A stretch of DNA of 27,739 nt. It comes from a virus (Duplodnaviria; Heunggongvirae; Uroviricota; Caudoviricetes). The stretch lies in the IMG/VR virus record IMGVR_UViG_2695420411_000008; one strand, written 5' to 3'. Positions 1,500-3,723 of this stretch are shown one piece after another (the stretch's first letter is position 1; every line of letters starts with the position of its first letter). The notes beneath the pieces were generated by a model. It did no database searches. It worked only from the letters and a program-made list of their open reading frames with translations, and was not told the origin of the DNA. Position numbers and translations under genes: made by a program.

Positions 1500-1636
1500 C
1501 ATCAGAACTGATTGAGGTAATCCGCATGCGCTGGACACGCCTCCGCATTTATCGCCGCCCGGGTTCGGTGCTGGTGGACTACCGCATTCTTCGCAATTTT
1601 ATTCGCATTAACCAGTTGGCAGGAGCTGCTGCATGA
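1496..1636 (+). CDS. Small basic hypothetical protein (46 aa), translationally coupled between rusA and Q
   Basis: ATG overlaps rusA stop (ATGA) and its stop overlaps the Q start (ATGA); Arg-rich; below the ORF-track length cutoff. Confidence 0.3.
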
Positions 1637-2463
1637 ACCTCGAAAACACCGTGAAATACCACTTCGCCAAATCGACGCTGATTAGCGACTCTCCGCGCGC
1701 TACGGCCTCCGACTCGCTGACCGGAACGGACATCATGGCAGCCATGGGCATGACCCAGGAACGCGCCGCCATGGGCTACAGTGCCTTTCTCGGAAAGATG
1801 GGCATCAGCAACAACGATCGGGAGAGAGCGATCGAGCTGCTGGCCCAGTATGCGCTGACAAAATGCGATAGCGTGGCTGCCCTGCGCAAACTGGACGCTG
1901 GGGTTAAACCGCTGGTGATGCGCCAGCTTGCTACCTTCGCTTTTGAGGACTATTCCCGCAGCGCCGCCAGCGTCAAGAGGTGCGAATGTTGCGCAGGGCA
2001 GGGGTTCATTGAGGCTGACGTTTTTAGTATGAAAACCAGCATCTCTGGCTGCGCAAAAGACATCATTCAAAAATCAAAAAAATGGGGGCTGAAGGTTATC
2101 CCTTCGCAGCATCAGAATCGGCGTGAGGTGAAAGAGGTGGCCCGGGTGCTGTGCTCGGCCTGCAAAGGGAAGAAGGTCGTCAGCTGCGCATGTAATGACT
2201 GCCAGGGGCGCGGAAAAGCTGTCAGCAAGACGCTGACAGAAAAGCAGGGCGCGCCGGTGATGGCCGACTGCAAGCGCTGCGGCGGGCGCGGGTATGAGCG
2301 GATCCCCTCGACTGAGGCATATGCGGCTGTTTGCCTTATTACCGACGCCATTACTCTGGACACCTGGAAAAAGTCAGTGAAGCCGTTTTACGACCGGCTG
2401 ATCACCAAATTCGACATGGAAGAAGCGTGGGCCGAATCGCAACTGCGAGCAATAACTCGATAA
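1633..2463 (+). CDS. Q: Late-gene antitermination protein Q
   Basis: AGGAG RBS 7 nt upstream; position after rusA and before the lysis cassette; Cys-rich zinc-finger-like segment (CSACKGKKVVSCACNDCQGRGK, CKRCGGRG). Confidence 0.7.
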   Translation: MNLENTVKYHFAKSTLISDSPRATASDSLTGTDIMAAMGMTQERAAMGYSAFLGKMGISNNDRERAIELLAQYALTKCDSVAALRKLDAGVKPLVMRQLATFAFEDYSRSAASVKRCECCAGQGFIEADVFSMKTSISGCAKDIIQKSKKWGLKVIPSQHQNRREVKEVARVLCSACKGKKVVSCACNDCQGRGKAVSKTLTEKQGAPVMADCKRCGGRGYERIPSTEAYAAVCLITDAITLDTWKKSVKPFYDRLITKFDMEEAWAESQLRAITR

Positions 2464-2469
2464 AGCACC

Positions 2470-2545
2470 AATTAATCGCTGTCGATTTTATCGTGAGCTA
2501 TTTACTTTTCCCGAATCTGTGTTAATTTCTCTCCAACGATGGGTT
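2470..2545 (+). promoter_or_regulatory. Probable Q-dependent late promoter (PR'-like) and Q-utilisation region
   Basis: AT-rich segment directly downstream of Q and upstream of a strong hairpin; exact -35/-10 not assignable by eye. Confidence 0.35.
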
Positions 2546-2558
2546 ACTGCCTTCGTTT

Positions 2559-2588
2559 AAAGCCCTGCGGTTAACCCCGCGGGGCTTT
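2559..2588 (+). terminator. tR'-like hairpin terminator in the late leader
   Basis: 12-bp stem AAAGCCCTGCGG / CCGCGGGGCTTT (one G-U pair), 6-nt loop, followed by GCCGTTTCTGG. Confidence 0.5.
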
Positions 2589-2843
2589 GCCGTTTCTGGA
2601 GGGTATGAAAATGTAGAGTAGAACGGACACACCGTAGCCGAAAGGCAATGCAGCAGTCATGATGCTGCCCCGAGTCGCCATTGAGCGAGCCTGTGTAGTG
2701 ACGGGTCAGGGTTCATAGATTAAAAATAGCTCCGGTAAAGCAGCGCGAAAGCCAGACGCGCACCGGTGATAAGCGGCGATGATGCGACAGCAGCTCAAGG
2801 GCATGAGCGTGGCCACTCCGGGAAGTGGCAAAGAATTTATAGA

Positions 2844-2871
2844 GGCTCGCATACGCGGGCCTTTTCTTTTT
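2844..2871 (+). terminator. Second intrinsic terminator-like hairpin in the late leader
   Basis: GGCTCGC / ATAC / GCGGGCC (one mismatch) followed by TTTTCTTTTT. Confidence 0.4.
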
Positions 2872-2971
2872 CAGGCTCCGGGAAACCTCCTCAACAAGCC
2901 TTGTTGTTAATGCAGCCCGAGAGCCTGATCCCCATTACACATAGCACCCCGAAATAATCGGAGGTGAGAGC

Positions 2972-3187
2972 ATGTTACGCATGGAAAAACTAACCACTGG
3001 CATCGCCTATGGTGCATCAGCGACTAACGCTGGTTACTGGAGCCTGCAGTTGCTTGACCAGGTGTCACCATCGCAGTGGGCAGCCATTGGTGTGCTTGGC
3101 AGCCTGGTGTTCGGGCTGCTGACGTATCTGACAAACCTGTATTTCAAAATCAAAGAGGACCGGCGCAAAGCCGCCAGGGGGGAATAG
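2972..3187 (+). CDS. Holin, phage 21 S-like pinholin, with dual-start motif
   Basis: GGAGG RBS; N-terminus M-L-R-M-E-K (two in-frame Mets 3 codons apart flanking Arg); two TM segments; close resemblance to S21. Confidence 0.9.
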
Positions 3188-3723
3188 TGGCTGACAGATC
3201 AAAGCTTAGCGCTGCGGTATTAGGTCTTATCCTCGCCGGTGCGTCAGCGCCCGTTATTCTCGATCAGTTCCTGAATGAGAAGGAAGGCAACAGCCTGATT
3301 GCTTATCAGGACGGTGGCGGCGTCTGGACTATTTGCCGCGGCGCCACGCTGGTAGATGGTAAACCAGTTCGCCAGGGCATGAAGCTGACGCAGGCCAAAT
3401 GTGACCAGGTGAATGCCGTTGAGCGAAATAAAGCGCTGGCCTGGGTTGAACGCAATATCAGGGTGCCGCTGACCGAACCGCAAAAGGCCGGAATAGCTTC
3501 TTTCTGCCCGTATAACATCGGGCCCGGTAAGTGCTTCCCCTCGACGTTCTATAAGCGCATCAATGCCGGTGACCGTAAAGGGGCATGCGAAGCGATCCGC
3601 TGGTGGATAAAAGATGGCGGCCGGGATTGCCGGCTAACCAAGGGGCAGAAGAACGGATGCTTCGGTCAGGTGGAACGCCGCGACCAAGAAAGCGCGTTGG
3701 CATGCTGGGGGCTCGATAAATGA
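3187..3723 (+). CDS. SAR endolysin (T4-lysozyme-type muramidase with N-terminal signal-anchor-release domain)
   Basis: GTG start overlaps holin stop; Gly/Ala-rich weakly hydrophobic N-terminus; catalytic spacing E-x8-D-x5-T in EGNSLIAYQDGGGVWT. Confidence 0.85.
   Translation: MADRSKLSAAVLGLILAGASAPVILDQFLNEKEGNSLIAYQDGGGVWTICRGATLVDGKPVRQGMKLTQAKCDQVNAVERNKALAWVERNIRVPLTEPQKAGIASFCPYNIGPGKCFPSTFYKRINAGDRKGACEAIRWWIKDGGRDCRLTKGQKNGCFGQVERRDQESALACWGLDK

Follow-up and report, generated by a model that had tools for sequence, protein, structure and literature searches.

A putatively mobile cassette encoding a structured RNA in the late leader of a lambdoid prophage

We analysed the 508-nucleotide (nt) gap that separates the gene for the antiterminator Q from the holin gene in the virus record IMGVR_UViG_2695420411_000008, a 27,739-nt stretch of DNA (hereafter the window) that is the right arm of an Escherichia coli lambdoid prophage and is found in identical copies across many RefSeq genomes. 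About 235 of the 508 leader nt belong to a cassette (2598–2831) composed of a Shine–Dalgarno site, a mini open reading frame (mini-ORF) and a 211-nt structured RNA, and comparison of loci indicates that this cassette is horizontally mobile and moves as a unit between phage operons. We lean towards a reading in which a lambda-type late-control leader has acquired a mobile RNA cassette, the product being a stand-alone RNA with a ribosome parked at its 5′ edge. The first-pass annotation had described two terminator-like hairpins between Q and the holin in an otherwise plain leader. The hairpins were confirmed, and the interpretation is supported in part: what had been taken as plain leader holds the cassette with its covariation-supported RNA. 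Two things that had been merged are now separate, namely the late control, which is ordinary, and the inserted RNA gene, which appears to be new.

Neither the RNA family nor the way it is coupled to a start-stop site appears to have been described before: Rfam, RefSeq annotation and the searchable literature contain neither. Literature searches by topic and by conserved strings returned no description, and a prior listing among 8495 unnamed phage candidates (PMC10690425) is possible. That such an element lies in a textbook Q-to-holin leader of heavily studied E. coli prophages indicates that phage ‘leaders’ still hide functional RNAs, and the fixed attachment of a start-stop site to the base of a large RNA structure is an uncommon arrangement.

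Fold and conservation of the 211-nt RNA

The copy of the RNA in the window is intact (Table 1). Its fold comprises about ten helices and at least one pseudoknot, and the core is a large junction closed by helix P1, with a GNRA loop, pseudoknots and invariant joining regions. The structure was built by hand with 48 pairs and evaluated on 52 representatives. Paired cells made up 97.1% of the total, compared with 28–37% when the 3′ partners were slid; 22 of the 48 pairs had changes on both sides, and none of 500 shuffles reached any of these measures. The result was replicated in a second set of 88 distinct metagenome sequences gathered with a pattern from the 5′ half only (97.0% paired, compensatory pairs 24 of 42). 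Here helix P8, no longer part of the bait, covaried from CUCA/UGAG to CCCA/UGGG or CUCG/CGAG. P4 likewise covaries (UCGC/GCGA, UCCC/GGGA, UAGC/GCUA and UCUC/GAGA), and the pseudoknot PK1, formed by the P5 loop and the bases before P6, showed the matched changes AGCA/UGCU, AACU/AGUU and CAUACC/GGUAUG, with support above all 500 partner permutations. A distal GCGAC considered as the partner of GUCGC was dropped, as the local P4 covaries instead.

In both sequence sets G-U pairs were frequent on the + strand only, so the sense of the RNA is that of transcription from Q to S. Protein coding was rejected: variability at the three codon positions was 0.152, 0.140 and 0.150 with no periodicity, gap lengths modulo 3 were distributed 46 : 334 : 163, and a frame remained open across the whole element in only 13 of the 52 members.

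Neither the window nor 14 related loci gave a match to Rfam 15 at the gathering score, and nothing matched the RNA core, with the long variant included, at E ≤ 10. This negative covers riboswitches, ribozymes, group I and II introns, GOLLD, ROOL, C4, STnc100, tRNA and tmRNA. ARAGORN called no tRNA or tmRNA in the window, and by Rfam and ARAGORN no similarity of the RNA itself to rRNA or tRNA was found.

Start-stop site and mobility of the cassette

The 5′ edge of the cassette is marked by a strong translation signal. The family mini-ORF consists of a Shine–Dalgarno site, a 5–8-nt spacer, ATG, zero to five further codons and a stop codon 0–8 nt before the first helix; in the window, alignment to the family points to the ATG at 2611 as the start, which makes the site a start-stop, ATG TAG. 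Among viral contigs, approximately 75 of 87 unique 5′ flanks carry a Shine–Dalgarno site, an ATG, one to six codons and a stop, and 59 of 85 metagenome 5′ flanks have a Shine–Dalgarno site with ATG, short ORF and stop. The usual mini-ORF is three codons long, its peptide is free to vary (MKQ, MKH, MVH, MHK and others), and conservation does not extend to the last sense codon. The Shine–Dalgarno site and ATG TGA persist in the two relatives that diverge most (68–72 bits). At 11 loci the o-spanin gene enters the cassette and ends at the mini-ORF stop, and the ATG is there replaced by TTG or ATC. These read-in loci, the start-stop of the divergent relatives and the insertion of the cassette as one block (see below) argue that the ribosome, not the peptide, matters. 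The earlier statement that the leader lacks a credible ORF stands for long ones, none being conserved in the 508 nt, and misses the mini-ORF.

When the leader was used as a BLAST query, its middle part was 75–90% identical to unannotated DNA at unrelated sites in other phages. The cassette lies between nutL and N in mEp213 and Hafnia phage yong1, 3′ of the lysis genes in vB_EcoS-733R5 and 3′ of Q in Klebsiella phage RothC, and it is also present in Stx2c phages and one Providencia phage. Pattern scans recovered the element from at least 120 viral and at least 120 metagenome contigs, and at least 250 phage, prophage and metagenome loci with the RNA are known to us in all. It is carried by 115 of 5426 complete E. 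coli genomes (approximately 2%), always on the chromosome, and the RefSeq annotation at its site in these genomes was empty in all. A loose pattern applied to species-representative genomes gave mostly chance matches: 26 of 120 scored matches passed the covariance model and were kept, all of them above 100 bits. Those with a listed record title all belong to Enterobacterales, the genera including Kluyvera, Citrobacter, Enterobacter, Yokenella, Ewingella, Chimaeribacter, Morganella and Xenorhabdus among others.

Genes flanking about 115 loci fell into 51 upstream and 59 downstream protein clusters, which include Q, Rz-like spanins, N, holins and a TerB-like moron. The contexts are after Q and pR′-tR′, between nutL and N, and at the end of a spanin gene, all of them classic moron positions in lambdoid genomes. 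Between the cassette and the next start codon there are −4 to 466 nt. The cassette is always co-oriented with the operon, and a simple scan of the window found no promoter belonging to it. In mEp213, set against HK620, the Shine–Dalgarno site, mini-ORF and RNA form a single insertion between the nutL boxB and the N leader.

Several loci deserve separate mention (loci are given by our own numbers). In mEp213 (L001 1823–3580) the pL operon contains two different N genes, and the cassette lies after the second nutL-type boxB (CCCUCCGAAAUGCGGG) and before the HK620-type N. A duplication of the flanks resembling a target-site repeat was seen in 733R5-type loci and is absent from other contexts. Phage mEp237 (L371:1722–1958) has a window-like pR′-tR′ and, behind it, a long-variant cassette that is divergent (122 bits). 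In this cassette the usually invariant GGUAAAGCAGC and AGCGGC blocks are altered, and no second terminator comes after it; the copy may be decaying or may represent a distinct subtype. The divergent relatives at L304:5404–5602 (− strand, 72 bits) and L293:1372–1590 (− strand, 68 bits) are without P2 and differ in the 3′ domain, with the core junction kept; that of L304 is located in an early operon beside a cI-like repressor and an exonuclease.

Other RNAs accompany part of the family. Downstream of the cassette, 13 of 200 loci (6.5%) have tRNA genes within 600 nt (for example L005:3304–3463, L016:8974–9208 and L044:4732–4807), and upstream the count is 0 of 208, an association whose direction is real and whose strength is weak. 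A long stem CUUUGG...CCAAAG, built around variable cargo that bears an acceptor-like stem and NCCA, comes after the RNA at 38 of 207 cassette loci; the cargo may be a genuine tRNA, a copy of helix 11 of 16S rRNA (positions 237–283 of the small-subunit rRNA model, 31.3 bits, E 7.8e-8) or another RNA. Such loci are L040:7667–7713 (also L098, L104, L114 and L080), L059 and L141, and L001:3203–3300. In HK620-type phages the CUUUGG...CCAAAG stem is the N leader just after nutL.

Late promoter and the two terminators

Upstream of the cassette, positions 2500–2557 can be aligned, base by base, to lambda pR′ and the initial transcribed region that follows it, including the −35, the −10 and the CAACGATGGGTTA block. 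The −35 TTTACT (2501–2506) stands opposite lambda TTGACT and the −10 TAATTT (2523–2528) opposite TAAATT, and TGn at 2520–2521 makes this an extended −10. The CAACGATGGGTTA block is invariant between the window and lambda pR′ (44.5 kb in lambda; lambda stretch AACGATGGGTTAA), and HK225 could also be aligned. The lambda version of this block contains both the start of transcription and the sigma70-dependent pause where Q loads. Within it AACGAT at 2535–2540 matches the lambda sigma70 pause element; by analogy transcription would start near 2535, and AACGAT may serve as a pause site. The 40-nt promoter block also occurs in mEp237 and at two further loci (L007 and L018). The Q-binding element, for which a comparison with related phages was proposed at the outset, was not identifiable in the lambda alignment of the region.

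Hairpin 1 sits 96 nt 3′ of the Q stop codon (2463). Its arms of 12 nt (2559–2570 and 2577–2588) are 92% complementary around a 6-nt loop, and the RNA folds into a 13-bp stem with a folding free energy (ΔG) of −23.3 kcal/mol (z = −4.7), equalled by none of 200 shuffles. It failed a simple terminator scan because its U-tract, UUUGCCGUUUCU, is interrupted. The hairpin nevertheless aligns with the annotated rho-independent terminator of phage HK225, and 46 distinct homologous leaders have differing hairpin sequences followed by the common tail UUUGYCGUUUCUGGAG, the pattern expected from a working terminator. The suggestion that it occupies the position of tR′ behind a pR′-like start region is supported by these alignments. 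A study of such phages (PMC7547250) describes a pR′ that is constitutively active, with transcription in lysogens ending a little way downstream and leaving a short RNA. Given the lambda pR′ alignment, the homology to the HK225 terminator and a Q that belongs to the lambda-Q family by its Pfam and PHROG matches, the region is supported, by homology rather than experiment, as lambda-type pR′-tR′ late control, and Q-dependent read-through is predicted.

The arrangement resembles lambda Q/pR′/6S RNA/tR′ and the StxS small RNA (sRNA) of Stx phages in its Q family, in pR′ and in a terminator within about 60 nt, and as in those systems a short constitutive transcript extended by Q only is expected upstream of the lysis genes. 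The lambda leader RNA measures 194 nt, compared with the approximately 60 nt expected here. Further differences from lambda are the interrupted U-tract, a second terminator 280 nt on and the unrelated structured RNA cassette between them. Expression in the lysogen from a constitutive pR′, if true, could affect host physiology, as StxS does.

The second hairpin with a T-tract is equally real (ΔG −16.0 kcal/mol, z = −4.4; 0 of 200 shuffles equal), although its stem, 2841–2864, lies a few bases off the position first assigned to it, 2844–2871. It has the loop AUAC and a T-rich run at 2862–2873, and only this one of the two hairpins passed the simple terminator scan. A hairpin and U-run within 80 nt after P9 are found in 26 of 207 unique loci (approximately 13%). 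At the position of the second terminator, t2, we collected 24 distinct sequences with at least ten different stems, and t2 stays with the cassette across at least three different downstream contexts. HK225 has pR′-tR′ and neither the RNA nor t2; mEp237 has pR′-tR′ and the divergent RNA, again without t2. This comparison of loci marks t2 as a real terminator linked to one cassette subgroup, and its tie to the cassette across contexts makes it look no less like the 3′ terminus of the RNA unit than like a second lysis terminator. The leader block 3′ of t2 is common to L008, L091, L038 and L070.

Two further observations concern the region of t2. Other subgroups carry, where the window has t2 and about 12 nt after P9, an extra covarying 3′ hairpin with the conserved loop AUUC-NNN-GAG, often followed by GAUAAUG (L002, L012, L024, L021, L106 and L067). 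The left arm of t2, AGGCTCGC (2843–2850), is fully complementary to the conserved GCGAGCCT (2686–2693) at the P4/P5 boundary; as an antiterminator this pairing was rejected, not being kept in other terminator variants.

Possible roles of the RNA and its genomic setting

In the reading that we favour, most transcripts from about 2535 would end near 2592–2597 when Q is absent, giving the short RNA, and Q-modified polymerase would read through hairpin 1. The cassette RNA would be a stand-alone molecule that binds a protein, a ligand or the ribosome, rather than a leader of the holin gene, and would be produced in large amounts, as part of antiterminated transcripts, while the phage grows lytically. 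A low level may also arise in the lysogen by leakage through the weak interrupted U-tract of tR′ and a stop at t2, as a transcript of approximately 336 nt from 2535 to about 2870. A ribosome on the Shine–Dalgarno and start-stop site could act as a 5′ cap, shielding the RNA from 5′-end-dependent decay that arrives from upstream. It might also melt the hairpin beside the stop codon (CGG 2624–2626 with CCG 2632–2634), so that CCGU 2632–2635 closes P1. In addition, t2 would form a second barrier for the late genes that only Q-modified polymerase passes.

A number of points weigh against this reading. The simple sigma70 consensus scan of the window called no promoter at pR′, because the −10 hexamer is weak and matches the consensus at three of six positions. 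Approximately 87% of cassette copies have no terminator within 80 nt, so that in most of them a defined 3′ end of the RNA would need processing. Neither P1 nor the local hairpin that competes with it varies, so covariation does not choose between them, and the divergent relatives at L304 and L293 have not kept the CCGC strand, which weakens the detail of a folding switch. The strict co-orientation fits equally well a role in cis on the transcribing polymerase or the translating ribosome. Promoter activity, leakiness of tR′, the ends of the RNA and translation of the mini-ORF are all things that we infer, and the function proposed for the RNA is a best guess.

We also put forward, tentatively and with a modest chance of being right, a broader proposal: that in the cassette temperate phages carry a functional RNA of a new, ribosome-coupled class, catalytic or ligand- or protein-binding, which together with the tRNA-like and helix 11 cargo would form a phage ‘RNA island’ manipulating host translation or defence in lytic growth. 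Such an RNA might, for instance, act as a sponge that soaks up a signal or factor of host defence, or dock on the ribosome that its own start-stop site delivers. Among the closest parallels are GOLLD and ROOL, orphan structured RNAs of large size that phages and prophages carry, often beside tRNA genes (see bioRxiv 10.1101/2024.12.08.627333). They share with the cassette RNA a phage-borne, complex and covariation-supported fold that sometimes lies directly upstream of tRNA genes or tRNA-like RNAs. Unlike them, the cassette RNA is much smaller, has so far been found in Enterobacterales only and has a start-stop site at its 5′ edge, and no match to them in sequence or structure was found. The prophage sRNAs STnc100, PasD, AgvB and AsxR, encoded between Q and the holin (bioRxiv 10.64898/2026.05.13.724894), occupy the same lambdoid niche; those are short Hfq-type sRNAs with Rfam models, none of which matches the cassette RNA.

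Alternatively the cassette could be a cis-acting sensor, riboswitch-like or translation-sensing, in which the fold or the mini-ORF ribosome decides downstream transcription or RNA survival, by way of t2 here and of Rho or RNases elsewhere. An aptamer-like core of junction, GNRA loop, pseudoknots and invariant joining regions would suit this, as would the constant co-orientation upstream of genes; at the nutL-N site such a sensor would gate the whole lytic cascade. Moreover, strand 2632–2635 can pair with either of two GCGG/CGG partners, and the t2 left arm is complementary to GCGAGCCT. Even so we regard a sensor as unlikely: there is no conserved expression platform, given the variable distance to the next start codon, a nearby terminator accompanies the minority of copies noted above, and the complementarity of t2 is lost in variants. 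N- or Q-modified polymerase ignores terminators and Rho, Rfam gave no riboswitch match, and the downstream genes form no coherent set.

Given that the Shine–Dalgarno, start and stop signals are the most context-independent feature of the family and persist in its most divergent members, the element might instead be directed at the ribosome and alter host translation in lytic growth, either as a minigene that traps ribosomes or causes peptidyl-tRNA drop-off or as a loader of ribosomes for a docking RNA. Cargo at sister loci mimics translation RNAs (tRNA, NCCA tRNA-like stems and 16S helix 11). The lambda bar minigenes also lie in pL transcripts; they and bacterial start-stop elements share with the cassette a strong Shine–Dalgarno site and an ORF of one to three codons, on pL or late transcripts, whose peptide is unimportant. 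The cassette mini-ORF differs in being in register with a large fold and in being dispensable where an upstream gene delivers ribosomes. A roadblock or minigene needs no conserved pseudoknotted fold of 211 nt, the last sense codon varies, and Rfam and ARAGORN showed no likeness of the RNA itself to rRNA or tRNA; we give this explanation a small chance. A short ORF ahead of structure has other parallels in the ribosome shunt of the cauliflower mosaic virus 35S leader and in 5′ stabilisers, among them ribosomes on the ermC leader and STAB-SD. As in the 35S-type leader, a short ORF of arbitrary sequence ends a few nt before the base of a large structure. The cassette is bacterial, however, with no conserved landing site or downstream start codon, and shunting or stabilisation is here only an analogy.

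A plain untranslated late leader, with pR′, tR′, a back-up terminator and a spacer between them, would impose strict Q-dependence on lysis and morphogenesis, as the first-pass annotation proposed. Both terminators are real and comparatively supported, and the interrupted U-tract of hairpin 1 and its failure in the scan would make a back-up useful. Yet the ‘spacer’ is an RNA family with 22–24 compensatory base pairs, which is also present in pL operons and behind spanin genes, places that lack pR′, and pR′-tR′, RNA and t2 come apart in HK225 and mEp237. As a complete account the plain leader is already contradicted, and it is distinctly improbable.

We consider it very unlikely that the RNA is a put-like processive antiterminator, with the nascent RNA helping its own polymerase past terminators and structured cargo. 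Many copies do lie just downstream of pL/nutL or pR′/tR′, and the element resembles HK022 put in being encoded in cis close behind early or late promoters, whatever genes follow. The put RNAs are about 70 nt long with two stem-loops, whereas the cassette RNA is three times larger, coexists with N and Q encoded by the same phages, also occurs far from promoters after spanin genes and includes a mini-ORF that antitermination would leave without a role. The covariance model of the RNA family, R1, run on the whole HK022 genome, the carrier of putL and putR, scored 5.4 bits at best (E 0.58).

A self-splicing intron, or a ribozyme that cleaves or processes itself or adjacent tRNAs free, is the least credible explanation: size and complexity would fit, having a stop codon at the 5′ edge is reminiscent of group I introns in phages and tRNA genes lie downstream and never upstream, but these tRNAs accompany few copies, Rfam gave no intron or ribozyme match, the helices follow an order unlike that of group I, no internal guide covaries with the 5′ ‘exon’, and no ORF spans the element or is restored by its removal in the window, mEp213 or HK620-type loci. 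For the sensor, minigene-like, put-like and ribozyme or intron explanations there is no positive evidence beyond architecture.

The coordinates of all features are collected in Table 1.

Table 1. Features of the Q-to-holin region and flanking genes (positions in the window)
Feature	Position	Strand	Basis or remark
Q antiterminator gene, 276 aa	1633..2463	+	Pfam PF03589 Antiterm, 147.8 bits, E 1e-43
Q antiterminator gene, second basis	1633..2463	+	PHROG 127 anti-termination protein Q-like, E 1.8e-100
pR′-like late promoter and initial transcribed region	2497..2557	+	Alignment to lambda pR′ and HK225
Hairpin 1, tR′-type intrinsic terminator	2558..2597	+	Stem 2558-2570 with 2577-2589, U-tract UUUGCCGUUUCU
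Shine–Dalgarno GGAGGG and mini-ORF ATG AAA ATG TAG	Shine–Dalgarno 2598-2603; ORF 2605-2616	+	Sequence, family statistics
211-nt structured RNA	2621..2831	+	Model R1: 240.7 bits, E 7.6e-79, full-length match
P1	2632-2635 with 2773-2776	+	RNA fold
P2	2637-2639 with 2644-2646	+	GAAA loop
P3	2650-2655 with 2663-2668	+	RNA fold
Candidate PK2	2669-2671 (CCC) with 2799-2801 (GGG)	+	One-sided changes only
P4	2675-2678 with 2685-2688	+	RNA fold, covaries
P5	2690-2693 with 2702-2705	+	RNA fold
PK1	2697-2699 with 2729-2731	+	Pseudoknot, matched changes
P6	2732-2735 with 2763-2766	+	RNA fold
P7	2743-2747 with 2757-2761	+	RNA fold
P8a	2784-2786 with 2808-2810	+	RNA fold
P8	2794-2797 with 2804-2807	+	RNA fold, covaries in metagenome set
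P9	2812-2816 with 2825-2829	+	RNA fold
Hairpin 2, intrinsic terminator t2	2841..2873	+	Stem 2841-2850 with 2855-2864, then UUUUCUUUUUC
Remaining untranslated leader	2874..2971	+	Holin Shine–Dalgarno GGAGG at 2960-2964
Class II (phage 21 S-type) holin	2972..3187	+	PF04971, E 6.6e-34
Lysozyme	3187-3723	+	PF00959, E 1.5e-24

The gene order around the leader is RusA, a small ORF, Q, the 508-nt gap, the phage-21-type class II holin, lysozyme and spanin. Positions 1–759 of the window contain a complete host-type gene for an amino-acid ABC transporter ATPase, adjoining phage nin-region genes at 760. As the host-type gene directly abuts these genes, the prophage is without its left arm and immunity region. 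The ORF at 760–1140 holds a short run of N near 850–862, read as XXXX in the translation.

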